From assembly GCA_050953525.1 (NCBI GenBank), contig JBMNMW010000004.1:1539-65538 (forward strand): DNA of 64,000 nucleotides, in the 5' to 3' direction. Below are positions 4,070-51,054 of this stretch, piece by piece. The position numbers and the translations under genes were made by a program. The notes below the pieces were generated by a model that saw only the letters and a list, made by a program, of their open reading frames with translations, had not been told where the DNA came from and searched no databases. Each line of letters begins with the position of its first letter. The first letter of the stretch is position 1. Source of the DNA: Candidatus Brevefilum sp. (GTDB lineage: Bacteria > Chloroflexota > Anaerolineae > Anaerolineales > Anaerolineaceae).

Positions 4070-4708
4070 ATGACCATTGATTATTATGTTCACCCATCAT
4101 CCGTAGTATCGTCCGGCGCCAGGATCGGCGAGGGAACAAAGATCTGGCAAAACTCACAGGTTCGGGAAGATGTTGTGATTGGGTCTCACTGTATTATCAG
4201 CATGGGTGTTTACATCGATGCAGGTGTGCAGATCGGTTCAAATGTCAAAATCCAAAATGGGATCTCGATCTATCACGGGGTTACCCTGGAAGATGGCGTT
4301 TTTTGCGGTCCGCATTGCGTTTTTACCAATGACAAATTGCCGCGTGCGATCAATCCAGATGGCTCTCTCAAAGGTGGTGAGGATTGGGCTGTCAGTGAAA
4401 CGCTTGTGCGGCGCGGTGCTTCGATCGGTGCAAACGCAACGATTGTGTGTGGCGTTGAAATTGGCGAATGGGCGATGGTCGCAGCCGGCGCGGTTGTTAC
4501 AAAAAATGTCCCTGATCATGGATTGGTCGTCGGAAACCCCGCCAGACTTTTTGGATTTGTGTGTTATTGTGGGCATAAGCTGACATTGGCAGGGGAGGGT
4601 CAAAATGGCCTGGAAGAAGGGTTTGCTGTCTCTTTCGTACGTATGGCTTGTCCGGTTTGTGGGTCAGTGATTGCAATCCCCAAAAGTATTTATCAAAAAA
4701 TTAAATGA
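4070..4708 (+). CDS. wbpD: Hexapeptide-repeat N-acetyltransferase, WbpD/WlbB-like, with C-terminal Cys-rich (zinc-ribbon-like) tail
   Basis: Left-handed beta-helix repeats, [32 protein letters not shown], tail CYCG...CPVC. Adjacent to wbpE/B/A-like genes. Confidence 0.75.
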
Positions 4709-4736
4709 AAGACAATAAAAATTAGGAGAAAAAATA

Positions 4737-5807
4737 ATGATCCCGATAGCAAAACCCTTTATTGGTGAAAGAGAAAAACAGCTTGTCATGGAAGTGCTTG
4801 ATTCAGGCATGCTGGTTCAGGGACCCAGGGTGGAAACATTGGAAAAAATGTTTGCTGAATTGTGCGAAGTTAAGCATGCCATTGCCACAACATCTGGCAC
4901 AACCGCGCTTCATATTGCGCTCCTTGCAAACGGTATTGGCGAAGGCGACGAGGTGATCACAACGCCCTTCACCTTTATTGCTTCAGCAAACAGCATCCTT
5001 TACGCTGGCGCGACACCTGTTTTTGTTGATATTGACGAGGAAACCTTCAATATCGACCCCAACTTGATTGAAGCAGCCATCACTCCTAAAACAAAAGCGA
5101 TTCTACCGGTACACCTTTACGGCTATGTTTGCAATATGGATGCAATTATGGATATTGCCAGACGACATAACCTAGTTGTGATCGAAGATGCCTGTCAGGC
5201 TGTTGACGCATCCTTCAAAGGGAAAAAAGCAGGATCTTTTGGGACCGGTGTCTTTTCTCTCTATGCCACCAAGAATGTGATGTCCGGTGAAGGGGGTATG
5301 ATCACAACCGATGATGATGATATTGCAGATTTATGCCGGCTCATTCGCAGCCACGGCATGAGGGTACGCTATTATCATGATATGCTGGGTTACAACTTCA
5401 GGTTGAGCGACCTGCACGCAGCCATTGGGATCGGTCAGATGGAGCGGATTGATGAGTTGAACCGAATTCGAAGAGCGAATGCGCAGTATTTTAATGAACA
5501 TCTCACATCTGTGATCACACCCAAAGTGAAACCTGAATATGATCATGTATGGCATCAATATACAATTCGCGTGGATGGCGGGCGAGACCGTGATGCGGCC
5601 GTCAAACAGCTGAATGACGCGGGCGTTGGCACCGGGATTTTCTATCCGGTTCCCGCTCATATGCAGGGCTACATGAAGGATTTGGTTGGTGACTACAGCA
5701 TGCCAGTTTCTGAAAAGCTGGCGAAAGAAGTAATTTCTATCCCGGTTCATCCTCAGGTGAGCCAGGCCGATCTTGAAAAGATTGTAGAAGAGGTCAACAA
5801 ACTATGA
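4737..5807 (+). CDS. wbpE: DegT/DnrJ/EryC1/StrS PLP aminotransferase, WbpE-like
   Basis: SGTTALH, VIEDACQA, FSLYATKNVMSGEGG (PLP lysine), GYNFRL. Confidence 0.75.
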   Translation: MIPIAKPFIGEREKQLVMEVLDSGMLVQGPRVETLEKMFAELCEVKHAIATTSGTTALHIALLANGIGEGDEVITTPFTFIASANSILYAGATPVFVDIDEETFNIDPNLIEAAITPKTKAILPVHLYGYVCNMDAIMDIARRHNLVVIEDACQAVDASFKGKKAGSFGTGVFSLYATKNVMSGEGGMITTDDDDIADLCRLIRSHGMRVRYYHDMLGYNFRLSDLHAAIGIGQMERIDELNRIRRANAQYFNEHLTSVITPKVKPEYDHVWHQYTIRVDGGRDRDAAVKQLNDAGVGTGIFYPVPAHMQGYMKDLVGDYSMPVSEKLAKEVISIPVHPQVSQADLEKIVEEVNKL

Positions 5808-6802
5808 GTATTCGAACAGCCGTCATTGGTGTTGGTTCGATGGGGGTCAACCATGCCCGCATCAATTGGGAATTGCCCCACGTGGACCTGGTGGGCGTGG
5901 CTGATTTCAATGAAGAAACAGCTCAGCGTGTGGCGATGAAGTACGGTGCAAAAGCCTATGTAAACCATGAAGATTTGCTGGATGAAATCAAACCTGATGC
6001 GGTTACTCTGGCAGTTCCGACGATTTATCATCATAAAATTGCGCTGGATGTGATCGAACGCGGTATTCCGCTCCTTATTGAAAAACCGATCGCTTTCACG
6101 ATTGAAGAAGGCAAGGATATTATTGCTGCTGCAAAGCGGAAGAATGTGAAGTTAATGATCGGGCACATTGAAAGATTTAATCCAGCGATCACAACTTTAA
6201 AACATCTGATTGCTGAGGGCGAATTGGGCAGGATCTTTCAGATGGATGCCCATCGGCAGGGCCCTTTCCCTGCCCGAATCTCTGATGTGGGCGTGGTTGT
6301 CGATCTCGCTGTCCATGATCTGGATGTGATGCGATTCGTGTCTCAGAGCGAGGTGACAAGGGTCTATGCTGAAACTGAGAAACACATCCACAGTAAATAT
6401 GAAGACTTGCTGACAGGACTTGTTCGTTTCGATGATGGAATTGTTGGTACTCTGACGATCAACTGGCTGACCCCAACCAAAATCAGAGAGTTTATCGTCA
6501 CGGGTGAGAGAGGACTTTATCGCTGTGACTATCTGACCCAGGATTTGTTTTTCTATGAAAATCCCGATTCAACAGGCAGTGAATGGGAGAACTTGAGACA
6601 TTTGCGGGGTGTTCGGGAGGGCAAGATGGTTCGGCATGTCGTGGCAAAGAAAGAGCCGCTGCGTGCAGAGCAGGAAGCTTTCATCGATTGTGTCCGGAAT
6701 GACACCCCCGTGCCTGTGAGCGGCGAAGATGGCTTGAAGGTGCTTGAAATTGCTTCACTTATCGTGCAATCCGGAACTGAGCACCGGATCATCGAACTCT
6801 AA
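5804..6802 (+). CDS. wbpB: Gfo/Idh/MocA oxidoreductase, WbpB-like (UDP-GlcNAcA 3-dehydrogenase)
   Basis: VIGVGSMG, LIEKP, GHIERFNPA, DLAVHDLD. ATGA overlap with the aminotransferase. Confidence 0.72.
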   Translation: MSIRTAVIGVGSMGVNHARINWELPHVDLVGVADFNEETAQRVAMKYGAKAYVNHEDLLDEIKPDAVTLAVPTIYHHKIALDVIERGIPLLIEKPIAFTIEEGKDIIAAAKRKNVKLMIGHIERFNPAITTLKHLIAEGELGRIFQMDAHRQGPFPARISDVGVVVDLAVHDLDVMRFVSQSEVTRVYAETEKHIHSKYEDLLTGLVRFDDGIVGTLTINWLTPTKIREFIVTGERGLYRCDYLTQDLFFYENPDSTGSEWENLRHLRGVREGKMVRHVVAKKEPLRAEQEAFIDCVRNDTPVPVSGEDGLKVLEIASLIVQSGTEHRIIEL

Positions 6803-6818
6803 TCCAATCATACATCTT

Positions 6819-8156
6819 ATGACTTATTATCTGGAAACACTTAAAAAATTAATCAGCGAAAAAAGCGCCAATGTTGGTGTCATTGGTTTGGGTTATGTGG
6901 GATTACCGGTCGCCTGTATGCTGGCTGATGCTGGTTTCAGCGTGACAGGACTGGACATTAAACAAGATAGAATTGACAAAATCAATGCCGGGGCTAACCC
7001 CATCGAAGGGAAAGAACCAGGTCTGGCAGAAATTTTATCCCGGGTTGTTCGGAATGGTAAATTGATCGCTACAACGGATTATGATGCTTTGTCCGATGTT
7101 GACATCGTGTTGATCGATGTGGAAACACCGATCGATGAAAATAATATTCCTCAATATCATGCACTCAAAGCCGCATGCAGCAGTTTGGGTGCTGTGATCA
7201 AGGATGGCGCTCTGGTGATTGTCGAATCGACAATTGCACCGGGAACCATGAACTCCGTTGTTCGTCCCTTGCTGGAAAATACAAGCGGGAAAAAATCCAA
7301 CCAGGATTTTTTCCTTGGCGCATGCCCTGAACGGGTGATGCCGGGAAAGTTGCTTACAAATTTGCAAACGATGAGCCGGGTATGCGGCGGGGATACTGCT
7401 GAAGTCTCAGACACACTGATCGCCTTTTACAGACATATCGTGCAGGCTGATCTTGACCCGGCTGATCTAATCACGGCTGAGTTGACCAAGACCGCGGAAA
7501 ATGCCTATCGTGATGTGAACATCGCATTTGCCAACGAATTGGCTTTGATTTGCCAGTCTGTGGGGGCAGATTTTTTGAAGGTGCGAACCCTGGTGAACAA
7601 ATCGCCCGGAAGAAACGTATTGTTTGCTGGCGCCGGAGTAGGTGGGCATTGCATTCCTAAAGACCCATGGTTGCTGGCTTACAGTGCAAAAGACGACGTG
7701 GATTTGCGACTGATCCCCACCGCTCGCTTTGTGAACGACTCAATGCCCGGACATATTGTCACCATGCTTGAGGCTGGCTTGGGAACGTATGGCAAATCTT
7801 TAGAAGAAACAAGGGTTGCTATCCTGGGTTACGCTTATCTTGAAGAGAGTGACGATACTCGCAACAGTCCCAGCGAAGCACTAAGGGTTTTGCTTGATGA
7901 AAAAAATGTTGATGTCGTTATCCAGGACCCCTATGTACCGGAATACCAGCAGCCAATACTTGAGACCATTGATGGTTGTGATGCGATCATCGTGATGGTT
8001 GCGCATCAGGCATATCGGGATTTGGATTTGAACGCGGTCAGCAAACGGTTGCGATCCCCTCTCATTATCGATGGGCGGCGCGTGATTGACCCACAAAAAG
8101 CCTTGGATGCAGGCTTCAGGTACTACGGATTGGGATTGGGCTCAATCCATCAATAG
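6819..8156 (+). CDS. wbpA: UDP-N-acetylhexosamine 6-dehydrogenase (WbpA/WecC family)
   Basis: GVIGLGYVGLP, CPERVMPG, KTAENAYRDVNIAFANE, GVGGHCIPKDP. The start was placed at Met26 of the track ORF. Confidence 0.75.
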   Translation: MTYYLETLKKLISEKSANVGVIGLGYVGLPVACMLADAGFSVTGLDIKQDRIDKINAGANPIEGKEPGLAEILSRVVRNGKLIATTDYDALSDVDIVLIDVETPIDENNIPQYHALKAACSSLGAVIKDGALVIVESTIAPGTMNSVVRPLLENTSGKKSNQDFFLGACPERVMPGKLLTNLQTMSRVCGGDTAEVSDTLIAFYRHIVQADLDPADLITAELTKTAENAYRDVNIAFANELALICQSVGADFLKVRTLVNKSPGRNVLFAGAGVGGHCIPKDPWLLAYSAKDDVDLRLIPTARFVNDSMPGHIVTMLEAGLGTYGKSLEETRVAILGYAYLEESDDTRNSPSEALRVLLDEKNVDVVIQDPYVPEYQQPILETIDGCDAIIVMVAHQAYRDLDLNAVSKRLRSPLIIDGRRVIDPQKALDAGFRYYGLGLGSIHQ

Positions 8157-8174
8157 AGACGAAAAAGGTGAGGG

Positions 8175-9125
8175 ATGTATAAAGACAAAACGGTTGCTGT
8201 TGTTGTCCCGGCTTACAATGAAGGGAAACTGATCAGCAAAGTCATCGAGACGACGCCTGATTATGTTGATTTTCTGGTCATTGTTGATGATCTCAGCACC
8301 GATAATACGGTTGAGGTTGTTGAAGAATATATCAATAAGGGACATGGCAGGATCGTTCTGATTAAATTAGAAGAAAATTCGGGTGTTGGTGGAGCGATTG
8401 CGGAGGGGTATAAATGGTGCCGTGATCATCAAATTCAGGCAACAGCGGTCATGGCTGGCGATGCCCAGATGGACCCCGATGATTTGCCTGCCTTGCTGGA
8501 CCCTATTGTGAATGGTGAGGTGGACTACACCAAGGGGAACCGCCTTTTCACGGGTGAAGCCTGGCGTAAGATTCCCAAAACGCGCTACATGGGCAATGCC
8601 GCGCTGTCTTTGATGACGAAAATTGCCTCAGGCTACTGGCACGTTGCCGATTCGCAGACAGGTTACACCGTGGCAAATCACAAAGTTTTATCAACGCTTG
8701 ATTTGGGTGGGATTTACAAGCGGTATGGGATGCCCAATGATATGCTGGTGAAATTAAACATTTATAACTTTAAAGTGCGCGATGTTGAAATTCAACCGAT
8801 CTACGGAATTGGTGAAAAATCCGGGATCAAACCCTTGCTGGTCATTCCGAAATTTATGTACTTGTTGACGAAGTTATTCTTTTATCGCATGATTCAGAAG
8901 TACATTATCAGAGACTTTCACCCACTGATCTTTTTCTACTCATCGGGGATTGCCTTCTCACTTGCTGGCTGGTTGTTTGGTCTGTACTTGCTTTATATTC
9001 GCCTCAGAGTTGGCCCTGTGGCGGCGACCAGCTCAATTGCAGCGATGTTCCTGATCATTACAGGGCTGCAATCGCTCTTTTTTGCGATGTGGTTTGATAT
9101 GGATTCAAATAAGTATTTAAAATAA
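8175..9125 (+). CDS. GT2, polyprenyl-phosphate sugar synthase (DPM1/ArnC-like) with C-terminal TM helices
   Basis: VVPAYNE, IVDDLSTD, MAGDAQMDP, KGNR and DSQTGY motifs, plus two hydrophobic C-terminal segments. Confidence 0.8.
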   Translation: MYKDKTVAVVVPAYNEGKLISKVIETTPDYVDFLVIVDDLSTDNTVEVVEEYINKGHGRIVLIKLEENSGVGGAIAEGYKWCRDHQIQATAVMAGDAQMDPDDLPALLDPIVNGEVDYTKGNRLFTGEAWRKIPKTRYMGNAALSLMTKIASGYWHVADSQTGYTVANHKVLSTLDLGGIYKRYGMPNDMLVKLNIYNFKVRDVEIQPIYGIGEKSGIKPLLVIPKFMYLLTKLFFYRMIQKYIIRDFHPLIFFYSSGIAFSLAGWLFGLYLLYIRLRVGPVAATSSIAAMFLIITGLQSLFFAMWFDMDSNKYLK

Positions 9126-9172
9126 CGTCTGGTTTATAAAATTTAATGAATCAAGAAATAAGGACTGGTTAA

Positions 9173-10255
9173 GTGAGGAAGGGTTTGAAGGTCGTAACGG
9201 TAGTTGGCGCGCGTCCTCAATTCATTAAAGCCGCTTCTGTCAGCCGTTTACTCAAGACAGTTGCGAATGAGGTCATCCTTCACACCGGTCAGCACTATGA
9301 TATCAACCTCTCACAGGTGTTTTTCGAGGAATTAGATATTCCTGAGCCGGACTACAACCTTGGTGTGGGATCAGGACCGCATGGCGCTCAGACGGGCGAA
9401 ATGCTGGCAAAGATTGAAGCTGTGCTGCAGAAAGAAAGCCCCGATAGGGTTTTAGTTTATGGGGACACCAATTCAACCCTTGCCGGTGCGCTGGCTGCGG
9501 TAAAAACAGGAATTCGGATTGCTCATGTTGAAGCCGGCTTACGGAGCTACAATCGCCGGATGCCTGAAGAGATCAACCGTGTATTGACTGATCACATTTC
9601 GGATTTGCTGTTCTGTCCTGGTGATGCTGCTGTCGAGAACCTTCGTAAGGAGGGAATCACTAAATCTGTTTATGTTGTTGGGGATGTGATGGCAGATTCA
9701 CTTGCCTATGCGGTTGAAAAGGCGGAGGGTTCATCAACGATACTGGGTCACCTGGGGATTAAACCTGGCGAGTTTTACCTCGCAACCGTTCACCGGGCTG
9801 AAAACACGGATGACCCTGAACGACTTGAGAATATTTTAAAAGCGCTTACCGGTTTAGATTTACCGGTGGTTTTTCCGCTTCACCCCAGAACCAAACAGGC
9901 GATTGAAACCTTCAAAATGACGGCGTATCTCGATCAACCCGGTATGGTCGTCATCACGCCTGTGGGTTATCTTGACATGATTCACCTTGAAATGTCGGCA
10001 AAAATGATTCTCACAGATTCGGGTGGAATCCAAAAAGAAGCCTATTGGCTATCGGTTCCCTGCGTGACTTTGCGAGATGAAACCGAATGGATTGAGACAG
10101 TGCAATTGGGCTGGAACGTCCTTGCCGGGGGAAATGATCGATCAATTGTTGAAAAAGTCCTTGGTTTTTCTATCCCTCTGGAACATCCTGAATTGTATGG
10201 ATCCGGGCAGGCAAGTCAGAAAATCGTTGACCACCTCTTGTCTGCGAATTGCTGA
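9173..10255 (+). CDS. wecB: UDP-N-acetylhexosamine 2-epimerase (non-hydrolysing; WecB/WbpI)
   Basis: VGARPQFIK, HTGQHYD, VYGDTNSTLAG, HVEAGLRS, TDSGGIQKEA, LRDETEW. GTG start. Confidence 0.9.
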   Translation: MRKGLKVVTVVGARPQFIKAASVSRLLKTVANEVILHTGQHYDINLSQVFFEELDIPEPDYNLGVGSGPHGAQTGEMLAKIEAVLQKESPDRVLVYGDTNSTLAGALAAVKTGIRIAHVEAGLRSYNRRMPEEINRVLTDHISDLLFCPGDAAVENLRKEGITKSVYVVGDVMADSLAYAVEKAEGSSTILGHLGIKPGEFYLATVHRAENTDDPERLENILKALTGLDLPVVFPLHPRTKQAIETFKMTAYLDQPGMVVITPVGYLDMIHLEMSAKMILTDSGGIQKEAYWLSVPCVTLRDETEWIETVQLGWNVLAGGNDRSIVEKVLGFSIPLEHPELYGSGQASQKIVDHLLSANC

Positions 10256-10299
10256 GATGGAATTTAAACCTTTGACGCCTGGAGTATTCTGAAATTCTG

Positions 10300-11352: not shown

Positions 11353-11367
11353 GGTTATCAGGAAACG

Positions 11368-12426: not shown

Positions 12427-12459
12427 TATGAACTGTCCTTTCCCAAGAAAACATAGAAC

Positions 12460-20203: not shown

Positions 20204-20206
20204 TAT

Positions 20207-42720: not shown

Positions 42721-42744
42721 CGTTTTTCTTTCTAAAAAGATTCA

Positions 42745-43911: not shown

Positions 43912-44040
43912 TCAGATTGGGAAAACTCTATTTCATAATAGGATGATATTCGAATTCTTTATTAATAGCGGTTATTGTGTTGCTGACACACTTTTGACAA
44001 AATCGTCAATTTAAATTAACAAATTCGATCCATCGCTTAC

Positions 44041-44916
44041 TTATTCCATGGACAAGCGCAGGGCAACATCCCATGGAGGGGTTGGGATGCTGAATGTGTC
44101 CTGAAATTTTTTACAGGACAGGATGGAGTGCAGTGGCCTGGTTGCCGGCGCAGGGAATTCGATTGTTTTTGCTGGCTGAAGCGATTTAACGATCTGGGTT
44201 TCCTTATCCGGATCCAGCTGAAGGATCATTTTCGCCCATTCGAACCGACTGCAAGAACCCTGATCGGTCAGATGATAGAGGCCAGCCCTTTCAGCAATAT
44301 ATCCGACGGCATTGCCGCGTCCTTGCGCGATCACCTGTGCGGTGATCTCAGCCAGGTCTCGCGCCCAGGTCGGTGTACTGATCTGGTCATCAACAACGCG
44401 CAGGGTCTCATATTGCCTTGCCCATTGCAGGACCTTGGTCACAAAAGATTGCCTGCGAAGGGAATACACCCAGCTGGTGCGGAAAATTAAATATGCGCCG
44501 CCGATTGCCTCGACAGATTTCTCGCCAGCCAGCTTGCTTTCACCATAAACACCGAGCGGATTGGGCTGATCTTCTTCCAGATAGGGTTCAGTTGCTGTGC
44601 CATCAAAGACATAATCGGTGGAAAAATGGATTAAGCCAGCGTTCAATCTGAGGGCTTCCTCCGCAAGGACACCGGGTCCTGTGTCATTAATCGCCATCGC
44701 TAATTCATTTAAGCTTTCAGATTTATCAACATCCGTATAGGCGGTCGCATTAATAATTAAATCAGGGCGGTGTTCTCTGACGATTGACCGAATTTGATCC
44801 GGATTGGACATGTCGATTTGGGGGTAATCCATAGCGACAAGATCTCCAAGCGGGAGCAGCGTCCGATTCAGTTCCCAACCAACCTGTCCAGTTGTGCCAA
44901 GCAGTAATGTTTTCAT
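44041..44916 (-). CDS. rfbD: dTDP-4-dehydrorhamnose reductase
   Basis: GTTGQVGWEL, NATAYTDVD, STDYVFDG, YGESKLAGE, VVDDQISTPT. Confidence 0.95.
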   Translation of the reverse strand: MKTLLLGTTGQVGWELNRTLLPLGDLVAMDYPQIDMSNPDQIRSIVREHRPDLIINATAYTDVDKSESLNELAMAINDTGPGVLAEEALRLNAGLIHFSTDYVFDGTATEPYLEEDQPNPLGVYGESKLAGEKSVEAIGGAYLIFRTSWVYSLRRQSFVTKVLQWARQYETLRVVDDQISTPTWARDLAEITAQVIAQGRGNAVGYIAERAGLYHLTDQGSCSRFEWAKMILQLDPDKETQIVKSLQPAKTIEFPAPATRPLHSILSCKKFQDTFSIPTPPWDVALRLSME

Positions 44917-45021
44917 ATTTTTGTTGTACCATGCTACAAATTAATAAATTTAAAAAGCATTCGAGACCGACAAACGACTCATCGAGTGCAAAGAGTTCGT
45001 TAAAACATATTTTTAATGAGG

Positions 45022-45897
45022 CTATTGGATCTTCCCCTCAGCTAAGCTGAGAAGATACTCTCCATATTGATTTCCGTTGAAGGTTTTTGCCAGTTCTTTT
45101 AACTGTTCCCTGTTGATAAAACCCATGCGATAGGCGATCTCTTCCGGACAGGAGATCATCATACCCTGCCGGTCTTCAATTGCCTGGACAAAATTTGAGG
45201 CTTGCAGCAGTGAATGATGCGTGCCGGCATCCAACCAGGCGACTCCTCGCCCAAGAACTTCTACTCGCAGTTCGCCCTTTTCTAAATAAATTCTATTGAG
45301 ATCAGTGATCTCAATTTCACCTCTTGCTGAGGGTTTAAGGTTTTTTGCGAACTCAACCACGCGGTTGTCATAAAAATAGATGCCCGGAACAGCATAATTT
45401 GAGCGCGGTTTCAAGGGTTTTTCCTCAAGGCTAAGTGCATTCCCCTGTTTATCAAATTCGACAACCCCATACCGCTCTGGATCATGGACCGGATAAGCAA
45501 AGATAGTTGCGCCCTGGGTCAGGCTTGCTGCTTGCCGTAAGGTTGCAGGCATACCCTGTCCATAAAAGATATTATCGCCAAGGATAAGCGCTGCAGGTTG
45601 GTCTTGAATAAAATCCTCGCCCACGATAAAGGCATCTGCCAGACCTCGCGGGCTTGCCTGGGTCGTAAATGATAAATCCAACCCCCATTGTTTACCGTCC
45701 TGTAACAATCTTTTGTACTGGTCCGAATCCTCCGGGGTTGTGATGATCAGAATTTCCCGAATGCCAGCCAGCATTAACATGGACAGGGGGTAGAAGATCA
45801 TCGGTTTATCGTAAACGGGCAAAAGCTGTTTGCTGATCCCCATGGTGAGTGGATAAAGGCGGGTTCCTTTGCCGCCAGCAAGAATCAATCCTTTCAT
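45022..45897 (-). CDS. rfbA: Glucose-1-phosphate thymidylyltransferase
   Basis: [56 protein letters not shown]. The start overlaps the rmlB stop (ATGA). Confidence 0.95.
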
Positions 45898-46979
45898 GTT
45901 GTTCCTCTCTGTTGATAATTGAGTTGAACCCATTGCTGGTAATCTTTTTCTTTCAGGAGGGCATCCATCCAGTCCATATTGGCAAGATACCAATCAACCG
46001 TATCCCTGAGCCCTGATTGAAGGTCATGTTTAGGCTGCCAGTTCAAAGTTTTACGAATCTTTTCGATGTTCATCGCATATCGTCGGTCGTGGCCAGGTCG
46101 GTCCTTAACGTATGTGATTAATTGTTCGTGAGGCGCAAACCCATTGGGCAAATCCTTTTCGTCCAGCAGTTGACAAATGGTCTTAACTATTTCGATATTC
46201 GGCGGTTGATTATCACCACCAATGTTATAGCATTCCCCTTCTTCGCCCTTTTCAATGATCGTCCAGATGGCTTCACAATGGTCCTCCACATACAGCCAAT
46301 CACGGATTTGCATCCCATCGCCATAAATAGGAAGTGGTTTACCATTGAGTGCGTTGAGGATGATTAACGGAATCAATTTTTCGGGAAATTGATAAGGGCC
46401 ATAATTGTTTGAACAATTGGATATTGTGATCGGCAGCCCGAATGAATGGTCGTAGGAGCGCACCAGATGGTCGCTGCTAGCTTTTGAGGCTGAATAAGGG
46501 GATGTGGGTGCATAAGGGGTGGTTTCTTCAAATGCCGGGTCATCAGGCTCCAATGTGCCGTAGACCTCGTCGGTAGATATATGATGGAAGCGAACCTGAT
46601 CACCAGTGAAATGATTTTCATTCAGCCAAACTTTGCGTGCTGCTTCAAGGAGCGAAAAGGTGCCGACGATGTTGGTTTGGACGAAAGCGGCTGGGCCCAG
46701 CAAGGAGCGGTCCACGTGGGATTCTGCGGCAAAATGAACGATGGTGTCAATTTCTTTTTCACGCAAAAGGCTTTCAACCAGGTTTTGATCGCAGATATCA
46801 CCTTCGATAAATTCGTGATCGTTTGGACGTGGTAAATCCTGCAAATTTTGAAGGCTGCCCGCGTAAGTCAGGATGTCCAGGTTGACAATTTTTGTTTCGG
46901 GAGCGTGAGTTTGAACATAGCGGACAAAATTTGATCCAATAAAACCCGCGCCTCCTGTGACAAGCAATTTACGACTCAT
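45894..46979 (-). CDS. rfbB: dTDP-glucose 4,6-dehydratase
   Basis: [59 protein letters not shown]. Confidence 0.96.
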
Positions 46980-47524
46980 GAAAAAACCTCCGCATCTCTA
47001 AACAAAGGAGCGCTTGCATCCTTTGGTGAAACAATTGGATTTATCCCTTCAGTCAAAGGCCAATCAATAGCCAGTTCCGGGTCGTCCCAACGGATACAGC
47101 GCTCACTCTGTGGGTCAAAATAATCAGTGGTTTTGTAAACCACATCAGTTTGATCTGAAAGCGCGATAAAACCATGCGCAAAACCTTCTGGGATCCATAG
47201 CTGGTATTTGTTTTTGTCCGAAAGGACAGCGCCGACATATTGACCAAAAAATGGTGAACTCCGGCGCAGGTCAACAGCCACATCATAGATTTCACCGATC
47301 ACAACCCTGACAAGTTTGCCCTGGGTGTGCCGGATTTGATAATGTAAACCGCGAAGTGTGTGTTTACATGATGAAGAGTGGTTATCCTGAATAAAATCAC
47401 ATGGGATGCCGGCATTGGAAAACCTTTCTTTCTGATAGGTTTCCATGAAAAATCCCCGGCTGTCCTCATATAATTTGGGTTTAATAAGAAGGACGTCTGG
47501 GATACTGGTTGTAATAAAATTCAT
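46976..47524 (-). CDS. rfbC: dTDP-4-dehydrorhamnose 3,5-epimerase
   Basis: DSRGFFME, QDNHS, LRGLHYQ, QGKLVRV, VAVDLR..SP.FG, WIPEGFAHGF. The start was placed at Met24 of the track ORF. Confidence 0.95.
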   Translation of the reverse strand: MNFITTSIPDVLLIKPKLYEDSRGFFMETYQKERFSNAGIPCDFIQDNHSSSCKHTLRGLHYQIRHTQGKLVRVVIGEIYDVAVDLRRSSPFFGQYVGAVLSDKNKYQLWIPEGFAHGFIALSDQTDVVYKTTDYFDPQSERCIRWDDPELAIDWPLTEGINPIVSPKDASAPLFRDAEVFS

Positions 47525-47627
47525 AAGGTTCGTTTTGATAGTGAAAAGACGATGAATATTATAACAGAGATAAACAGATTGTGAATGACACATCTGCGAA
47601 GTCCGGACATTATATTGAGTGTGTAAA

Positions 47628-48398
47628 TTATTTGCCTATGAGGGCTGTCTTATAAACGTCACAAACGCTGTTGGCATCGCTCAGCAATTTGATTTCCCCG
47701 CGATCCAACCACATGGCCCGGCTGCAAATTGATCTGATCTGTTCGACGGAATGTGTCACCATAATCACCGTTGCGCCGCCATCCCTGAAGTTTGCCATGC
47801 GGTTGATGCATTTTTGTTGAAAGGCAACGTCGCCAACCGAGAGAACCTCGTCCAAAATAAGAATATCTGGCTTCCAGGCCGTTGCGACGGCAAAACCCAG
47901 TCGGGATTGCATGCCTGATGAATAGGTTCGCAAAGGGGCTTCGATGAACTTGCCGACTTCTGAAAAATCAATAATTTCCTCAACCTTGTTTTCGATTTCA
48001 TCATGGGAATGACCCAGCAAAGTCGCATTTAAAAAGATATTTTCGCGGCCGGTCAATTCTGGGTGAAAGCCTGCGCCAAGCTGAAGCATTGGGCTGATCT
48101 GCCCTTTAACCCACACCCGACCCTCCGAAGGGACCAGAACCCGGGAGATGACCTTTAGCAGGGTAGATTTTCCAGCGCCATTGCGTCCCAATACTCCAAA
48201 AATTTCACCTTTTTTAATTTCGAGGTTAATATTTTTAAGCGCTGAAAACAACGCATGTTTTATCTGACCCTTGATTAATTTTATGACATATTCTTTAAAT
48301 GTTCCAATGTTTTCATTAGGCAAACGATAATGAACAGATACATCTCTCAAAAAGACAGAATTATTGGTTTGGGGTTCATCAACGATCAAATTAGACAT
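47628..48398 (-). CDS. wzt: Polysaccharide ABC transporter ATPase without C-terminal carbohydrate-binding module
   Basis: GRNGAGKST, GAGFHPELTGREN, YSSGM..RLGF, LILDEVLSVGD..FQQKC. About 256 aa, ending right after the NBD. Confidence 0.9.
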   Translation of the reverse strand: MSNLIVDEPQTNNSVFLRDVSVHYRLPNENIGTFKEYVIKLIKGQIKHALFSALKNINLEIKKGEIFGVLGRNGAGKSTLLKVISRVLVPSEGRVWVKGQISPMLQLGAGFHPELTGRENIFLNATLLGHSHDEIENKVEEIIDFSEVGKFIEAPLRTYSSGMQSRLGFAVATAWKPDILILDEVLSVGDVAFQQKCINRMANFRDGGATVIMVTHSVEQIRSICSRAMWLDRGEIKLLSDANSVCDVYKTALIGK

Positions 48399-49206
48399 GA
48401 TATGCAAATTTATCTGCTCGAATACAGAAAAAGATCCAGCCAATGATCAAAATACCAAAGGAGGATACTCCAGTTGCAATCCATGTTTGCAGGTGGGGCA
48501 CAAAACCATCCAGCATGAGGATGCGGAAAAAATTGACAATGTAATAGAAGGGATTGATGTATAAAAGCAACCCGTTTAATATTTTTTTATAAAAATCGAG
48601 CGGCATGATAATCGGCGTGAGATACATCCAGGCTGTCAGGACAACAGGATATAAATCTGCAACATCAGGAAAAAAAACAGCCAGGGATGATACCAGCAGT
48701 CCTATCCCCAAAGAAAATGCAAATAAGAAAAGCATTGACACAGGAAAAAGCAATGCAGATGTTTTTAAGGTAACTCCCGTAATTATGTAAACAATTGCGA
48801 GCGGGACCAGGGAAATGACAAAATTGACCATGCTTGCCATGATGGTTGATACCACGAAGGCAGTGCGGGGAACATAAATTTGCTTAAATAAGGCGCTGCC
48901 CCACACCATTGAGCTCATCGCCATCGTTGTGGATTGCGAAAACATTGTCCAGCAAATCACACCCGTAAGAACGTAAGCTGCATAATTGTCTGCGCGGTCA
49001 AAAACCTGTGAAAACACAATCACCATGATCAGCATCGTTCCCAGGGGATTGAGCATCGTCCAGGCGACGCCGAGAAAAGAACGTTTATATCTTGCAACGA
49101 TGTCGCGACGCACCAATTGATAAATCAGATCGCGATATTTCCATAAAGCAATTAACTCTTCAATTGCAGGATGTTTTCTTTTTGCGCTGTCGTAAATGTC
49201 GGTCAT
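48391..49206 (-). CDS. wzm: Polysaccharide ABC transporter permease
   Basis: LVRRDIVARYKRSFLGVAW..LNPL, WMYLTPI, NP...I...FR; six TM segments. Confidence 0.92.
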   Translation of the reverse strand: MTDIYDSAKRKHPAIEELIALWKYRDLIYQLVRRDIVARYKRSFLGVAWTMLNPLGTMLIMVIVFSQVFDRADNYAAYVLTGVICWTMFSQSTTMAMSSMVWGSALFKQIYVPRTAFVVSTIMASMVNFVISLVPLAIVYIITGVTLKTSALLFPVSMLFLFAFSLGIGLLVSSLAVFFPDVADLYPVVLTAWMYLTPIIMPLDFYKKILNGLLLYINPFYYIVNFFRILMLDGFVPHLQTWIATGVSSFGILIIGWIFFCIRADKFAYHV

Positions 49207-49301
49207 AAATGAAAAATAAGGGCATGATTGAATGCCCAAAGGTTACCTTAAAAGGTGTGCGCTGTCAATGAACGCGATGTGATGCGATCTTGCAAAAAAT
49301 G

Positions 49302-50114
49302 TTAAGTATCCTGAATGGTCATTCTGATCACATATCGATAGTAAGTATATCTCCCCGCATCTAAGGATTCAGGCCCCCAACCGCAAAACCCAAGATAGAT
49401 GAAATTTTCAAAAGAAGGCTTCATGGTCCCCACCCATTCCGAGCGATCACCTTTTCTTTCAATGAGAATATTTTCGATTTCTTCCGGCTCCAACCATAAC
49501 TTTTCCGATGCCTGGTGAGACAACCGAGCAATGCTGTTGATCTTTGTGGTGAGCAAATATTCGCCGTTACATAGCCATTCAATCTCAGATCCGATTAATT
49601 GATCGATTTGTTGCTGGATGTAATCATTGTCTTTTTTCCCCCAATGCTCCAGGTATTTGCGAATAAATTCTGCCTCCATGGGTTTAAGTATGTTGCCGTT
49701 TAAAAATGAAGAATGAAGGATCAAATAGGGCGTTTTCTCGTAAAAGACCGCTGTTCCTTTGCCTAACGCAAATTTATCGCCTTTATCTTCAAAATAGTCC
49801 CTGTCAAGGACAGTAAACTTACTTATCTGATTTTTCAAAGGACCCGACGTGAAGGTAATGATCGTCTCACAACCATATAAACTTGCCAAATTATCGGGAG
49901 TTGGAATAGTCGTTGATTGTGGGAAAAAAGGTTCGGGCGCTTCAGTTGTGATTGTTTTTTCCGGAAGAGATAACACCGATTGTTCATCAAAGCTTGATGT
50001 CGGTGCGAATGGGCGTTGCAACGCTTCTCCAACAGAAACATTGGGAGTCTTTGATGAACAGCTGACCAGGATGATCAAGAACAGCTGAGTGATGAAGCTC
50101 AAGCGCTTTTTCAT
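49302..50114 (-). CDS. Divergent sortase-like lipoprotein (class F-like)
   Basis: Lipobox LVSC. His in AVFY...LILHS, Cys in IYLGFCG and Arg in YYRYVI occur in sortase order and spacing. Pattern match by eye only. Confidence 0.6.
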   Translation of the reverse strand: MKKRLSFITQLFLIILVSCSSKTPNVSVGEALQRPFAPTSSFDEQSVLSLPEKTITTEAPEPFFPQSTTIPTPDNLASLYGCETIITFTSGPLKNQISKFTVLDRDYFEDKGDKFALGKGTAVFYEKTPYLILHSSFLNGNILKPMEAEFIRKYLEHWGKKDNDYIQQQIDQLIGSEIEWLCNGEYLLTTKINSIARLSHQASEKLWLEPEEIENILIERKGDRSEWVGTMKPSFENFIYLGFCGWGPESLDAGRYTYYRYVIRMTIQDT

Positions 50115-50129
50115 AATTGAGAAAGAAGT

Positions 50130-50163
50130 CAGCATTCAGATACCCATGGGTATCTGAATGCTG
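50130..50163. repeat. Perfect 34-bp palindrome between the surface-protein gene and the sortase-like gene
   Basis: CAGCATTCAGATACCCA|TGGGTATCTGAATGCTG, read directly. Confidence 0.95.
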
Positions 50164-50184
50164 TTGGTGACCTAAATCTGAGGA

Positions 50185-51054
50185 TTAGTTATTCAATGTT
50201 TCCCTTTTCTTCATTTTCAAAAAGCCGGCGGCGATCGATCCAAGGCCAAGAATTCCGAAAACGAAGGGCGCTACACTACGAGTAAACGACGGACCACTTC
50301 CACCTGCTGGTTGATCTGGTGCCGGGTCAACAACCACTTTGGGTTCTTCTTCTGGAACAACAACAGCAACTGTTGTGGGTGGCTTGGTGGGCTGCTCAAG
50401 CGGACATGGTATGACAGTTTCAGCGACAACAAAAGATTCTTCGTTGTAGGAATAATCAATTGAGACGAGATTCCCTTCGCGGGCAGTTGTGAAGCTTGCC
50501 GATCCGTTTGCCGGGGCAATCCCGGTGCCGGTTTCACTATTATTTGCACTCCAGGCGAACGCAACTGCAAACGGATTATCATTAATGACCTCCCAAGAAA
50601 TGCTCATTGCTTCGGTTTCTGTCGTTGGGATGCCAGAACAGATTCCTGATAGAACAAGCGGTATGAATTCATCATCCGGGGTTGTTTCAGTGGGGGTTAT
50701 AGATGGTGCTGCAGTTGGTGTGAAAGAAGGAATATCGGTAGGCGTGTTTGTGGGCTTCGATGTGGGTGTATTCGTTGGAACTGATGTTGGTGTATTCGAC
50801 GGTAGGGACGTTGGCGTATTGGTGGGCGCGGTTGTTGGGGTGTAAGTGTATGTGGGATAAGCTGTTGGCGTTTTGGGGGAATGTTTGGTTTTTGTGGGCG
50901 TTGCCGTAGGATTGATCTTGGTTTTAGTTGGTTTCTTGCCTTCAAGTCCACTGGCAGCAACATTTCCATCAATTAAAGACGGAGTTGACAGAAGTATGGC
51001 TAAAATTAGGAAAATTCCTCCCAAAACAAAAAGGATTTTTGAGTTTTTATTCAT
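50185..51054 (-). CDS. Thr/Pro-rich (mucin-like) surface protein with signal peptide and C-terminal sorting signal QPAGG + TM + KMKKR
   Basis: Hydrophobic N-terminus, seven xTPTxxP[T/S] repeats, a Cys-flanked ~85-aa domain, then QPAGG, a hydrophobic helix and a basic tail. Confidence 0.8.
   Translation of the reverse strand: MNKNSKILFVLGGIFLILAILLSTPSLIDGNVAASGLEGKKPTKTKINPTATPTKTKHSPKTPTAYPTYTYTPTTAPTNTPTSLPSNTPTSVPTNTPTSKPTNTPTDIPSFTPTAAPSITPTETTPDDEFIPLVLSGICSGIPTTETEAMSISWEVINDNPFAVAFAWSANNSETGTGIAPANGSASFTTAREGNLVSIDYSYNEESFVVAETVIPCPLEQPTKPPTTVAVVVPEEEPKVVVDPAPDQPAGGSGPSFTRSVAPFVFGILGLGSIAAGFLKMKKRETLNN
50677..50844 (-). repeat. Seven degenerate 24-nt (8-aa) tandem repeats xTPTxxP[T/S]
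   Basis: YTPTTAPT NTPTSLPS NTPTSVPT NTPTSKPT NTPTDIPS FTPTAAPS ITPTETTP. Confidence 0.9.

Follow-up and report, generated by a model that had tools for sequence, protein, structure and literature searches.

In Gram-positive bacteria, loci for rhamnose cell-wall polysaccharides (Rha-CWPS) combine an ABC-exported rhamnan with a GT-A C55-P-sugar synthase, a GtrA- or Wzx-type flippase and a GT-C, while TagO/RgpG and the LCP protein are encoded outside the locus (PMC9574508). Polymerisation and ligation are carried out by the DUF2142 GT-Cs WpsI and WpsJ, with TagO/RgpG and LCP again found elsewhere (PMC9574508, PMC12599335). WpsI and WpsJ of the lactococcal cwps loci are DUF2142 proteins, and the rgp loci of S. 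thermophilus contain a trio described as 'large multidomain GT + DUF2142' (PMC12599335, PMC9746298).

The 49-kb gene cluster considered here comes from an uncultured Anaerolineae bacterium from an anaerobic digester. Its envelope-glycan locus spans positions 2004-49239 of a 64,000-nucleotide stretch of DNA (the window), which starts some 1.6 kb from the contig end. In the best model, its product would be a rhamnose-rich surface glycan, made with the involvement of four unannotated membrane GT-Cs. The cell wall is given an even chance of being the destination of this glycan, whilst a Thr/Pro-rich (TP-rich) surface protein encoded alongside is a tentative second choice.

Gene content of the locus

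Genes were identified with Pfam and NCBIfam profiles, and the search for missing functions took in all 50 window ORFs with a length of 100 aa or more, the intergenic gaps and 10 kb past the right end. The gene inventory of the original prediction was essentially right, and each class of gene that it listed was recovered at the positions given (Table 1). The two export routes correspond to a Wzx-type flippase (PF13440) and to Wzm/Wzt (PF01061, PF00005), the best NCBIfam matches of this Wzt being TagH and the mycobacterial galactan Wzt. The two nucleotide-sugar pathways are RmlABCD and a 2,3-diacetamido(uronic) sugar set joined by WecB; within the set, NCBIfam matches are to NeuD/PglB/VioB, UDP-GlcNAc 3-dehydrogenase (331 bits, below cutoff) and TIGR03026 (above cutoff). 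The expected lipid-P-sugar synthase is represented by a GtrB-like GT2 (8175-9125) with two C-terminal TM helices (residues 257-275 and 277-295), which has AglJ and PpgS as its best NCBIfam matches, below cutoff.

There are about 12 glycosyltransferases in the locus. The Leloir enzymes comprise the GT2 proteins 8175-9125 and 13689-14648, both GT4 proteins and both double-GT2 proteins, and possibly also the DUF354 protein and the GT-B-like protein, whose gene is syntenic in two other loci (L095, L136). The 601-aa protein GT2_601 lies outside the range of the original prediction but is a member of the locus by synteny. Among the modifiers, the acyl and methyl classes are supported by Pfam. The sulfo label does not stand in the same way; the two P-loop-like proteins concerned are paralogues (26% identical, E 3e-12) with no match in Pfam, NCBIfam or PDB, and because neither a family nor a solved structure matches them, a sulfotransferase function is putative.

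The lack of an initiator, ligase and polymerase had been seen as unusual. Among the 50 window ORFs there are no matches to PF00953, PF02397, Wzy_C, Wzz or LCP. WecA/WbaP, Wzy, Wzz, WaaL and LCP are all missing from the window, and neither the intergenic gaps nor the 10 kb beyond its right end contain further candidates for these functions. Such a lack is not unusual, however, since it is the documented design of Rha-CWPS loci (PMC9574508, PMC12599335).

Table 1. Features of the locus and its flank, with positions in the window
Feature	Position	Strand	Basis
GT2_601: soluble GT2, 601 aa; N-terminal 300 aa of no recognised family, then GT2 domain	2004-3809	-	PF00535
2,3-diacetamido(uronic) UDP-sugar set: hexapeptide N-acetyltransferase, DegT aminotransferase, GFO-type 3-dehydrogenase, NDP-sugar 6-dehydrogenase	4061-8156	+	Pfam, NCBIfam
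GtrB/ArnC-type GT2, putative polyprenyl-phosphate sugar synthase	8175-9125	+	PF00535; two C-terminal TM helices
WecB, non-hydrolysing UDP-GlcNAc 2-epimerase	9173-10255	+	TIGR00236, 317 bits (cutoff 210)
DUF354 protein (10300-11352), GT4 (11368-12426), GT4 (12460-13563)	10300-13563	+	Pfam
GT2, 319 aa	13689-14648	-	PF00535
Wzx-type MOP flippase	14633-16114	-	PF13440, E 6e-92; NCBIfam MOP flippase families below cutoff
Two SAM methyltransferases, second with C-methyltransferase C-terminal domain	16376-18315	-	Pfam
Dlt-like O-acylation module: ACP (19970-20206), acetyl-CoA-synthetase-like AMP-ligase, two DHHW proteins, DltB-like MBOAT	19970-25893	-	Pfam, NCBIfam, PDB
Secreted or anchored protein, two PF00756 esterase domains, N-terminal TM	26038-28044	-	Pfam
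B-type GT-C fused to 4-TM domain with extracytoplasmic loop, 726 aa, 12 TM segments	28288-30468	-	Sequence comparison
A-type GT-C, 465 aa	30673-32070	-	53% identical to 36397-37797
Split form of fused protein: B-type GT-C (32271-33653), 281-aa 4-TM/loop protein (33607-34452)	32271-34452	-	
Soluble double-GT2 protein, 636 aa	34456-36366	-	Two PF00535 stretches
A-type GT-C, 466 aa, modelled family member	36397-37797	-	AF2, Foldseek
Soluble double-GT2 protein, 678 aa	37974-40010	-	Two PF00535 stretches, E 7e-50
P-loop-like paralogue, 337 aa	40278-41291	+	PKxGTT-like loop
P-loop-like paralogue, 466 aa	41320-42720	-	PKxGTT-like loop
GT-B-like protein, 388 aa, Rossmann-like N-terminus	42745-43911	-	No significant family or PDB match
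RmlD, RmlA, RmlB, RmlC (dTDP-L-rhamnose synthesis)	44041-47593	-	Pfam, E 1e-71 to 1e-92
Wzt, short, without C-terminal glycan-binding domain	47628-48443	-	PF00005
Wzm	48391-49239	-	PF01061
Sortase-fold lipoprotein, 277 aa, unannotated Anaerolineae family	49302-50135	-	Lipobox LVSC; AF2 pLDDT 82
15-bp hairpin between TP-rich and sortase-like genes, terminator or attenuator	50130-50163	-	
TP-rich surface protein, 289 aa: signal peptide, NTPTS/TPT-rich stretch, ~90-aa folded domain, C-terminal PAGGSGPS + TM + KMKKR	50185-51054	-	Sequence
Sigma-70 consensus promoter TTGACA-17-TATAAT upstream of TP-rich gene	51202-51230	-	12/12 matches

The GT-C family and its partner genes

The four GT-Cs have no Pfam or NCBIfam matches. 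The fused B-type protein is 52% identical to the GT-C and 38% identical to the 4-TM/loop protein of the split form, an arrangement that is kept in L008, L009 and L011-L013. An AF2 model of the A-type protein 36397-37797 (pLDDT 89.3, pTM 0.90) has STT3, AglB, ArnT, Pmt4, EmbB, PglB, ALG9 and AftA as its best Foldseek matches, the top ones all being GT-Cs. Its residues P48-D49-(E50)-H53 after TM1, R115, D166, K207 and R408 are invariant, with an invariant Asp in the first outer loop. The modelled fold confirms the original view of the four orphan membrane proteins as GT-Cs; they belong to an unannotated family. Distant members match PMT_2 (43 of 60) and DUF2142 (30 of 60), and PMT is also matched; neither PMT_2/PMT nor DUF2142 is the closer of the two to the family. 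For the transfer and polymerisation steps that are missing outside the membrane, the four proteins are the obvious candidates.

Across 57 loci, the genes directly beside GT-C homologues encode chiefly GT2 proteins (23 of 107) and flippase-like proteins of PF03706 (15 of 107), a pattern which is that of a three-component glycosylation system. GT2_601 is a recurrent partner of A-type GT-Cs, being encoded directly after them in L007, L027-L029, L031, L105, L118 and L127; it also adjoins sortase-like clusters in L092, L093, L109 and L111. A module of double-GT2, A-type GT-C, double-GT2, 4-TM protein, B-type GT-C, esterase, MBOAT and two DHHW proteins occurs in five other Anaerolineae loci, and its GT-C/double-GT2 core is better conserved than any other part of the locus. 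Within it, the 636-aa double-GT2 is a conserved flank of the A-type GT-C and a candidate cytoplasmic polymerising enzyme, whilst the double esterase is kept beside B-type homologues.

In L008, L009, L011 and L013 the acylation module shows synteny with the GT-Cs. Its acyl carrier protein, missed originally, matches PDB 2lml (E 8.7e-19), the AMP-ligase has an AMP-binding domain (PRK04319, 625 bits) and the MBOAT protein matches TIGR04091 (168 bits). Such a Dlt-like module, tightly linked here to the GT-Cs, is typical of wall polymers rather than glycoproteins. To our knowledge, the targets of ACP-dependent Dlt-like systems are wall polymers, not proteins, and we know of no glycoprotein glycan O-acylated by such a system, a point against the TP-rich protein as acceptor.

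Least probable, and distinctly improbable, is that the locus makes two products with no relation to each other. Separate exopolysaccharides or capsules, free or lipid-anchored, would then come from the Wzx part (4061-18315) and from the Wzm/Wzt part (34456-49239), neither product being linked to wall or protein, with the GT-Cs adding only minor side-branch sugars. The two halves of the locus do run in opposite directions and have different G+C contents, and L093 and L109 have the wbp-like set with GT2_601 but lack the right-hand part. However, Wza, Wzc and PCP for a capsule/EPS route are, like Wzy, absent from the window, mere side-branching would hardly call for four GT-Cs with accessory domains, and it is the GT-C/double-GT2 core that is best conserved.

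The sortase-like pair and its association with glycan genes

The 277-aa lipoprotein matches neither PF04203 nor any other sortase model and is detectable by fold alone. Its top 21 Foldseek matches are all sortases, H141, C251, R262 and R267 are invariant in the family, and it is predicted to be a previously unrecognised sortase-like enzyme. The Thr-rich sortase substrate that had been proposed is the TP-rich protein. Its sortase-fold neighbour and tripartite C-terminal signal fit that role; the LPXTG motif is absent, a PAGGSGPS-type signal being present instead. The neighbours of such sortase-like genes usually carry this new, conserved tripartite signal, [PA][AG]GGxGPS + TM + basic tail, which is found in about 35 proteins encoded beside them. 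The TP-rich gene is the sole part of a 14-kb stretch to be assembled in three metatranscriptomes, in RNA contigs that stop at 50202, one of them extending to 51160. This exclusive recovery, the promoter and the hairpin indicate that it is very highly transcribed and encodes a major surface protein.

The predicted adjacency of the sortase pair and wzm/wzt is conserved: the order substrate, sortase-like gene, wzm/wzt, rml is kept in nine other loci, with identities of about 52-58%. In these wzm/wzt-adjacent loci, each of the eight readable substrates is TP-rich, as against 2 of 20 elsewhere. In L031, L105, L118 and L127 a unit of an A-type GT-C and GT2_601 is found immediately upstream of a sortase-like substrate, and in 11 loci an A-type GT-C adjoins a TP-rich CAP-LysM anchored protein, these being the sole TP-rich ORFs among 940. 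Such recurrences point to a functional link with surface proteins, which a wall-polymer model leaves as coincidence or hot-spot co-location.

They speak for a refined form of the original prediction, held here with less than even confidence, that the machinery glycosylates the TP-rich protein and perhaps other AGGxGPS-signal proteins. The A-type GT-Cs and their soluble GT2 partners would add a polyprenyl-P sugar to Thr of the TP repeats outside the membrane, in the manner of Pmt/Ppm1 or TfpW, or else would transfer a monophosphate-linked rhamnan en bloc; the sortase-fold lipoprotein would then cleave the C-terminal signal and anchor the glycoprotein, giving a mucin-like coat. The resemblance of the GT-Cs to PMT_2 and PMT agrees with this, as do the protein's apparent abundance and its make-up, mostly an N-terminal TP-rich 'brush' before the anchor, and with initiation on polyprenyl-P by the GtrB-like GT2 no PGT would be required. 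However, the loci with adjacent wzm/wzt are a single clade, in which adjacency and TP-richness may therefore each go back to one inherited event, and a single variable envelope hot-spot, between apgM and OsmC, may account for all of the arrangements. The substrates beside GT-C and GT2_601 units are not TP-rich, and no glycan genes lie near the TP-rich substrates of L091 and L106. The same apgM/OsmC backbone in L089 and L090 carries the sortase-like pair but lacks the entire glycan locus; the pair is therefore independent of the locus. The GT-C family is also present in Patescibacteria, in whose loci no adjoining sortase-like homologue was found, and the size and two-route design of the locus fit wall polysaccharides. 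Taken as a whole, the original interpretation is partly supported.

It is very unlikely that the sortase-fold enzyme joins its substrates to an amine on the locus polymer, such as an aminoacyl ester from the Dlt-like module or an amino sugar, instead of to lipid II. The polysaccharide would then anchor AGGxGPS-signal proteins, a logic analogous to that of PEP-CTERM/exosortase systems, which co-occur with EPS loci. Sortase-like clusters are repeatedly linked with glycan genes in several gene orders, the locus has both a carrier-protein-dependent acylation module and an amino-sugar pathway, and as the sorting signal is not LPXTG the nucleophile may differ too. Nevertheless, in L089, L090 and eleven further loci the available flanks of the sortase-like pair are free of glycan genes, the AMP-ligase is more like acetyl-CoA synthetase than like an amino-acid-activating DltA, and biochemical precedent is nil.

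Proposed wall-polymer assembly and its known counterparts

Our favoured reading, for which the balance is even, is that the locus may be a strain-variable assembly line for an envelope glycopolymer. It draws on the GT-C fold with its invariant Asp, the DUF2142/PMT_2 kinship and the Rha-CWPS precedent (PMC9574508), on the GtrB-like GT2, the TagH/galactan Wzt matches, the conserved GT-C module and its GT2/PF03706 neighbours, and on the Dlt-like module, the Patescibacteria GT-Cs and L089/L090. Against it count the nine-locus order with its TP-rich substrates, the GT-C and GT2_601 units upstream of substrates, the CAP-LysM neighbours and the closeness to PMT_2/PMT.

Whereas the gene identities, the GT-C and sortase folds, the synteny and the expression of the TP-rich gene are shown here, we infer the donor, the acceptor, the order of steps and the attachment to the wall as follows. 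RmlABCD would supply dTDP-rhamnose. In the cytoplasm, soluble single- and double-GT2 enzymes would assemble a chain that contains rhamnose on a polyprenyl carrier, for export via Wzm/Wzt. In parallel, the GtrB-like GT2 would load a sugar, probably an acetamido or uronic one from the adjacent pathway, on polyprenyl-phosphate; this may be extended by GT4 and GT2 enzymes and moved outward by the Wzx-type flippase. Outside the membrane, the two A-type GT-Cs and the two B-type GT-Cs with their 4-TM/loop accessory domain would use such polyprenyl-P-linked donors to polymerise a second glycan, graft it onto the exported chain, or both, filling the roles of Wzy and ligase as WpsI/WpsJ do. The ACP-dependent Dlt-like module and the esterase would afterwards carry out O-acylation of the polymer. 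The phosphoglycosyl initiator and the final LCP-type wall-anchoring transferase would be encoded elsewhere in the genome, as in Firmicute systems, and the TP-rich protein and sortase-fold lipoprotein would be a separate, abundant surface-protein sorting pair in a shared variable envelope region.

The proposed pathway is likened to the 'dual-chain' Rha-CWPS pathway of lactococci and streptococci. The GT-C family at its centre is akin to DUF2142, the family of WpsI and WpsJ, and likewise to PMT_2.

Gene content of the locus and a model for its product

All 50 non-overlapping ORFs that reach 100 aa were translated and scanned against Pfam; those left unassigned were rescanned permissively and against NCBIfam. 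These scans confirm the inventory of the original prediction, which listed two export routes, two nucleotide-sugar pathways, glycosyltransferases and modifying enzymes. Seven to nine Leloir glycosyltransferase proteins are encoded in the window, two of them soluble double-GT2 enzymes. The soluble 601-aa GT2 protein, GT2_601, and the 636-aa double-GT2 protein match the rhamnosyltransferase model TIGR01556 weakly (E 1e-8 and 2e-5), far below its cutoff. The modifiers are two methyltransferases, an AMP-ligase, an MBOAT protein with two DHHW proteins, and a double esterase. Two P-loop proteins, first read as sulfotransferases, are paralogues of each other and have no Pfam, NCBIfam or PDB sequence match to a sulfotransferase or to anything else; their sole resemblance to that class, seen by eye, is a PKxGTT-like loop and a 'YLRxxDxxxxSxW' motif. 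For ten unannotated window proteins nothing usable was returned by Pfam at E<=5 or NCBIfam at E<=0.1, and PDB sequence searches were also empty for a 388-aa protein and the sortase-like protein. On its 624-kb metagenome contig the window begins some 1.6 kb from one end, and the 10 kb past its right end hold housekeeping genes. Metagenomes of anaerobic digesters and bioreactors often contain near-identical sequence, the source organism being common in digester biomass, and homologues indicate Anaerolineaceae of Brevefilum type.

Features of the window and of loci around GT-C or sortase-like homologues in other genomes (L-numbers); positions are those of the sequence named
Sequence	Position	Feature	Remarks
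Window	97-168 (-)	tRNA-Gly(CCC)	left edge of the window
Window	2004-3809 (-)	GT2_601
Window	4061-10255	acetyltransferase, aminotransferase, 3-dehydrogenase, 6-dehydrogenase set and WecB
Window	8175-9125	GT2, candidate polyprenyl-P-sugar synthase
Window	14633-16114	Wzx-type flippase	Pfam
Window	19970-20206 (-)	acyl carrier protein	78 aa; PDB 2lml, E 8.7e-19; overlooked by Pfam
Window	28288-30468	B-type GT-C, fused form	726 aa; 4-TM/loop part 28288-29100
Window	30673-32070	A-type GT-C
Window	32271-33653	B-type GT-C
Window	33607-34452	4-TM/loop protein, split form	281 aa
Window	34456-36366; 37974-40010	double-GT2 proteins
Window	36397-37797	A-type GT-C
Window	40278-41291; 41320-42720	P-loop proteins
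Window	44041-47593	RmlDABC	Pfam
Window	47628-49239	Wzm/Wzt	Wzt short; best matches TagH and mycobacterial galactan exporter
Window	49302-50135	sortase-fold lipoprotein	277 aa; lipobox
Window	50130-50163	hairpin	15 bp
Window	50185-51054	TP-rich protein	289 aa
Window	51202-51230	promoter	perfect sigma-70 consensus
L007	8953-9936	PF03706 (MprF flippase-like) membrane protein
L010, L020, L022-L025, L034, L037, L038, L042, L044	e.g. L020 11406-12887	CAP-LysM protein near A-type GT-C
L085	8613-9575	phage integrase
L089	1-1097	PF04203 sortase with fn3 domains	1362 aa
L089	6072-11703	pair(s) without glycan locus	complete genome
L090	6544-9842	pair(s) without glycan locus

The predicted absence of an initiator, a polymerase and an LCP protein from the window also held, as no ORF matches PF00953, PF02397, Wzy_C, Wzz or LCP, and the intergenic gaps yielded no further candidate. 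Thus a Wzx is present but the Wzy, Wzz, PF02397 and PF00953 matches of a Wzx/Wzy-dependent pathway are missing, and no ORF has the PF02397 or PF04932 match of an S-layer glycosylation (slg) locus. These gaps had been taken as unusual. They are not anomalous, since the rhamnose-rich cell-wall polysaccharide (Rha-CWPS) loci of lactococci and streptococci show the same. There, the rhamnan is exported by an ABC route, while a GT-A enzyme forms C55-P-sugar; the lipid-linked unit reaches the outside through a flippase of the GtrA or Wzx type; the DUF2142 GT-C WpsI then polymerises and WpsJ grafts onto the rhamnan, with TagO/RgpG and LCP encoded outside the locus (PMC9574508, PMC9746298, PMC12599335). 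The window contains the components that this type of pathway combines in one locus, namely rmlABCD, an ABC exporter, a putative GT-A lipid-P-sugar synthase, a flippase and GT-C enzymes (PMC9574508).

The acyl carrier protein, together with the AMP-ligase, the MBOAT protein and the DHHW proteins, makes a Dlt-like, carrier-protein-dependent O-acylation module, in which the two DHHW proteins would be the DltD-like partners. Both are weak matches, each with an N-terminal TM helix. The sole NCBIfam match of the MBOAT protein is TIGR04091 DltB (168 bits; cutoff 375), and the AMP-ligase resembles acetyl-CoA synthetase, not DltA. Such a module fits a wall polymer. In view of this and of the gene-for-gene fit to the Rha-CWPS design, a wall-type, dual-chain glycopolymer is taken as the best model for the product of the locus, with about an even chance of being correct. 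That the locus instead makes two unrelated free polysaccharides is given a very small probability.

A divergent GT-C family

The four multi-TM ORFs belong to a single family that divides into two subfamilies. The two A-type proteins share 53% identity and the two B-type proteins (one of them the C-terminal part of the 726-aa protein) 52%, with 29% between subfamilies. The 281-aa ORF corresponds by homology to the first 270 residues of the 726-aa protein; B-type GT-Cs therefore have a 4-TM/loop accessory domain, which one copy has as a separate protein and the other as a fusion. It carries a 140-aa outer loop and may be a co-polymerase or acceptor-binding module comparable to WpsH/Wzz.

The original prediction that these orphan membrane proteins are GT-Cs is supported by fold, TM count and a loop aspartate. 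Each of the four has 8-12 hydropathy segments, within the 8-13 TM helices typical of GT-Cs. An AlphaFold (AF2) model of the A-type protein, built from a 45-sequence alignment, is all-helical (pLDDT 89, pTM 0.90). When it was compared with the PDB using Foldseek, GT-Cs made up 14 of the top 15 matches and most of the top 27, among them STT3, AglB, ArnT, Pmt4, EmbB, PglB, ALG9, AftA, PimE and AftB; probability was about 1.0 and E 8e-4 to 0.1, and the TM-scores were moderate (TMq 0.42-0.46). Across 45 close and 60 distant members P48-D49 is invariant and E50 nearly so. This places acidic residues right after TM1, in the first extracytoplasmic loop, as in the modified DxD of GT-Cs, and further invariant Arg, Asp, Lys and Arg residues lie downstream.

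In sequence, the window proteins stand apart from described families. None of the four matches PF09913 (DUF2142) or PF13231 (PMT_2) even at E<=5, nor PF02366, the mark of GT39, and searches of PDB sequences with sequence and profile gave no match. Among the 60 distant members, 43 match PMT_2 (best E 1.6e-11), 30 match DUF2142 (best E 2.2e-11) and 12 match PMT, weakly. On these profile matches, the window GT-Cs are divergent relatives of DUF2142/PMT_2 proteins and not members by threshold. The family comprises about 2,370 clusters at 50% identity and is unannotated, its members being labelled hypothetical by current annotation pipelines.

Two other readings of the membrane proteins were rejected. 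They are not oligosaccharyltransferases of the PglB/AglB/STT3 kind, because at 460-466 aa they have no soluble domain, and no WW[DE]/WWDxG motif occurs in any of the four. A Wzy or O-antigen ligase identity was discarded, there being no Pfam match and a fold that matches GT-C.

Two C-terminal TM helices, with AglJ and PpgS as best matches, make the GT2 at 8175-9125 a candidate GtrB-type polyprenyl-P-sugar synthase. Its presence in the locus provides no more than a context for a possible use of polyprenyl-P donors, as do the GT2 and PF03706 neighbours found in 57 GT-C loci, where GT2 proteins account for 23 and PF03706 flippase-like proteins for 15 of 107 immediate neighbours. This neighbourhood matches the layout of three-component glycosylation systems. 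None of the 25 most frequent families around the GT-Cs of these loci is a sortase, LCP or PGT family. In Saccharibacteria and Dojkabacteria (L045-L083), and in L007, a PF03706 protein of some 325 aa is typically encoded just ahead of the GT-C, an arrangement that suggests a flippase partner other than Wzx or GtrA.

In close Anaerolineae there is a conserved core, running double-GT2, A-type GT-C, double-GT2, 4-TM protein, B-type GT-C, esterase, MBOAT and two DHHW genes. Wzt-like or Wzm-like matches lie within 10 kb of a GT-C in about a dozen loci, and Rml proteins in slightly more, some Patescibacteria included.

The sortase-fold lipoprotein, its substrates and their neighbourhoods

The TP-rich protein had been called a sortase substrate. 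A tripartite signal and a sortase fold encoded next door uphold this, but LPXTG and PF04203 do not apply: the signal is new and so is the family. The C-terminus of the TP-rich protein reads PDQPAGGSGPS, followed by about five residues, a TM helix and KMKKR. About 35 proteins whose genes adjoin a sortase-like gene, in most of the readable related loci, end in the same way, with [PA][AG]GGxGPS, a TM helix and a basic tail; the signal was not found in L093, L107 and L109. Some loci have tandem substrate/enzyme pairs.

The neighbouring lipoprotein has no Pfam match, PF04203 included, at E<=5 and no NCBIfam sortase match at E<=0.1. Its model (pLDDT 82) nevertheless retrieves sortases as all of the top 21 Foldseek matches in the PDB (E 3e-4, TMt about 0.5). 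H141, C251, R262 and R267 are invariant in the family alignment of 43 sequences, and in the predicted model C251 closes strand 245-251 and R267 opens strand 267-276, as in sortases. The family comprises 119 proteins, the named ones coming from Anaerolineaceae, Brevefilum and Chloroflexota, and like the GT-C family it is unannotated and its members are called hypothetical. Loci encoding it are the window, L031, L088-L094 and L096-L137, and a 399-aa paralogue has an additional N-terminal domain. In L089, from a complete Chloroflexota genome, a protein with a canonical PF04203 sortase and fn3 domains is encoded 7 kb from the pair of substrate and sortase-like genes; classical sortases therefore coexist with the sortase-fold family. 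A literature search brought up no relevant paper on a sortase or sorting signal of Anaerolineae. The lipoproteins and their [PA][AG]GGxGPS substrates seem to constitute a protein-sorting system that is new and restricted to Anaerolineae, for which PDQPAGGSGPSF is a candidate substrate peptide. That the enzyme anchors the protein onto the glycan itself is considered quite improbable.

The TP-rich gene is bracketed by the perfect sigma-70 consensus promoter and the hairpin. Out of a 14-kb stretch, only 50202-51160 was assembled in three small biofilm metatranscriptomes, along with two short housekeeping-gene fragments. The gene is transcribed very strongly as a monocistronic message, in line with a role as a major surface protein.

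Such a protein could itself carry the glycan, as the original prediction has it. In this alternative, A-type GT-Cs would O-glycosylate the abundant TP-rich protein with a rhamnose-containing glycan fed by rml and Wzm-Wzt, and the lipoprotein, of a new sortase-fold class, would anchor it via the AGGxGPS signal; this is judged a serious rival, with the chances somewhat against it. Three separate neighbourhood patterns, in which anchored surface proteins go with A-type GT-Cs or with the rml/wzm operon, argue in its favour. In the first, the order sortase-like, wzm, wzt, rml recurs in nine loci besides the window's own, preceded by a substrate gene wherever upstream sequence is readable; all eight readable substrates (the window's own copy counted) are TP-rich, compared with two of 20 outside the wzm group, so that TP-richness follows wzm adjacency. 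In the second, GT2_601 lies beside sortase-like clusters in eight loci, four of which have an A-type GT-C directly upstream, but these substrates are not TP-rich, which counts against the alternative. In the third, 11 loci encode a TP-rich, anchored CAP-LysM protein next to an A-type GT-C or four genes away, with immediate adjacency in eight. The CAP-LysM proteins, of about 495 aa, have a CAP domain, three to four LysM domains, TP-rich linkers and a C-terminal TM anchor, and are the only TP-rich ORFs among 940. The GT-C family, moreover, stands equally close to PMT and DUF2142. The patterns may, however, reflect clade inheritance, and a shared hot-spot could account for the co-location.

The synteny expected from the original prediction, in which the sortase pair, wzm/wzt and the GT-Cs travel together across Chloroflexota, survived only in part. 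The order substrate, sortase-like, wzm, wzt, rml is kept in one clade. Neighbourhoods centred on GT-C homologues in 77 species genomes (10-kb flanks) contained one sortase-like homologue and no homologue of the TP-rich protein, whereas a scan centred on sortase-like genes recovered the adjacency in that clade; the two differ because the pair sits 13-25 kb from the GT-Cs there. Thirteen sortase-like loci have no glycan gene in the available flanks. In L089 and L090, the pair(s) lie between apgM and NAD_binding_2/OsmC, flanks that are the window's own backbone, and the entire glycan locus is missing. The 47-kb glycan locus thus behaves as an insertion between conserved flanks, and is on this comparison apparently a variable insertion in an envelope hot-spot. 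In another strain (L085), phage genes including an integrase lie immediately left of OsmC, and in a third (L084) other sugar genes (GT2, FdtA, DegT) occupy the same place.

Chloroflexota envelopes are multilayered and lack an outer membrane, and the composition of the extra layers, polysaccharide versus protein, is still debated (PMC13319060). The locus supplies candidates for both layer types: for polysaccharide, a polymer of rhamnose and diacetamido sugar; for protein, the very highly expressed, anchored TP-rich product. Under the wall-polymer model, the dual-chain design built on GT-Cs, which until now has been worked out in Firmicutes, would extend to Anaerolineae and probably to Patescibacteria. 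If the TP-rich protein is instead the acceptor, Anaerolineae would have a glycoprotein surface layer made without WbaP/WecA, Wzy_C-type oligosaccharyltransferases or LPXTG sortases.

Relation to known systems

The assembly logic is already known; what is new is the phylum, the GT-C family and the sortase-fold lipoprotein with its AGGxGPS signal. With the Rha-CWPS loci of Lactococcus and Streptococcus (cwps, rgp, gac) the window shares rmlABCD with a Wzm/Wzt-type exporter, a GT-A polyprenyl-P-sugar synthase, a Wzx-type flippase, polytopic GT-Cs (there DUF2142 WpsI/WpsJ and GacL) instead of Wzy and ligase, a large multidomain glycosyltransferase beside a GT-C (there a DUF2142 protein), strain-variable content, and an initiator (TagO/RgpG) and LCP that are not in the locus. 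It differs in coming from another phylum (Chloroflexota, Anaerolineae), and its GT-Cs fall below Pfam thresholds and form two subfamilies, one with the 4-TM/loop accessory domain. No RgpA/B/F orthologues were identified in the window, which has a GtrB-type synthase with two TM helices, not a WpsA/WpsB pair, and contains an ACP-dependent Dlt-like module, a double esterase and, at its head, the sortase-like/substrate pair.

Mycobacterial and corynebacterial arabinogalactan assembly shares the Rha-CWPS logic. There too, a cytoplasmic polymer is made by processive GT2s and exported by Wzm/Wzt, and the window Wzt matches the galactan-exporter family; several GT-C paralogues (AftA, EmbB and AftB, all among the Foldseek matches) use polyprenyl-P-sugar outside the membrane, and PF00756 esterase-family proteins (the Ag85 family) act on the product. 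The window, in contrast, has no UbiA/DprE-type donor pathway and the sugars differ; its GT-Cs are half the size and lack C-terminal carbohydrate-binding domains, and mycolate-like lipids find no support.

In the slg loci of Geobacillus and Paenibacillus, a surface-protein gene lies beside a wzm/wzt, rml and glycosyltransferase cluster, as it does in the window. The slg glycan is a methylated poly-rhamnan made by multidomain GT2 enzymes and O-linked to Thr, Ser or Tyr. These loci lack GT-Cs and encode WsaP, an initiator of the WbaP family, together with WsaB, an O-oligosaccharyltransferase of Wzy_C type. The window has GT-Cs and nothing of the WsaP/WsaB type, and its protein is small, TP-rich and anchored, not a lattice-forming S-layer protein.

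In the Pmt/Ppm1 system of actinobacteria (GT39) and in TfpW, the Pseudomonas pilin arabinosyltransferase, a GT-C with an Asp-Glu pair in its first outer loop uses a GT2-made polyprenyl-P-sugar to modify Thr/Pro-rich acceptor regions. The window GT-Cs have the same Asp-Glu in the first outer loop, and their distant relatives match PMT and PMT_2; they are themselves below PMT thresholds, however, and occur as four paralogues inside a polysaccharide operon.

The lipoprotein family, finally, differs from classical sortases in having no PF04203 or NCBIfam match, a lipoprotein anchor in place of the N-terminal TM helix, a His-Cys spacing of about 110 residues with inserted helices, the signal [PA][AG]GGxGPS in place of LPXTG, and a distribution limited to Anaerolineae-type genomes. 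With sortases of classes A-F it shares the predicted beta-barrel fold, the invariant His, Cys and Arg, with Cys at a strand end and Arg at the start of the next, an extracellular membrane tether, and a gene that usually adjoins one for a protein with motif, TM helix and basic tail.
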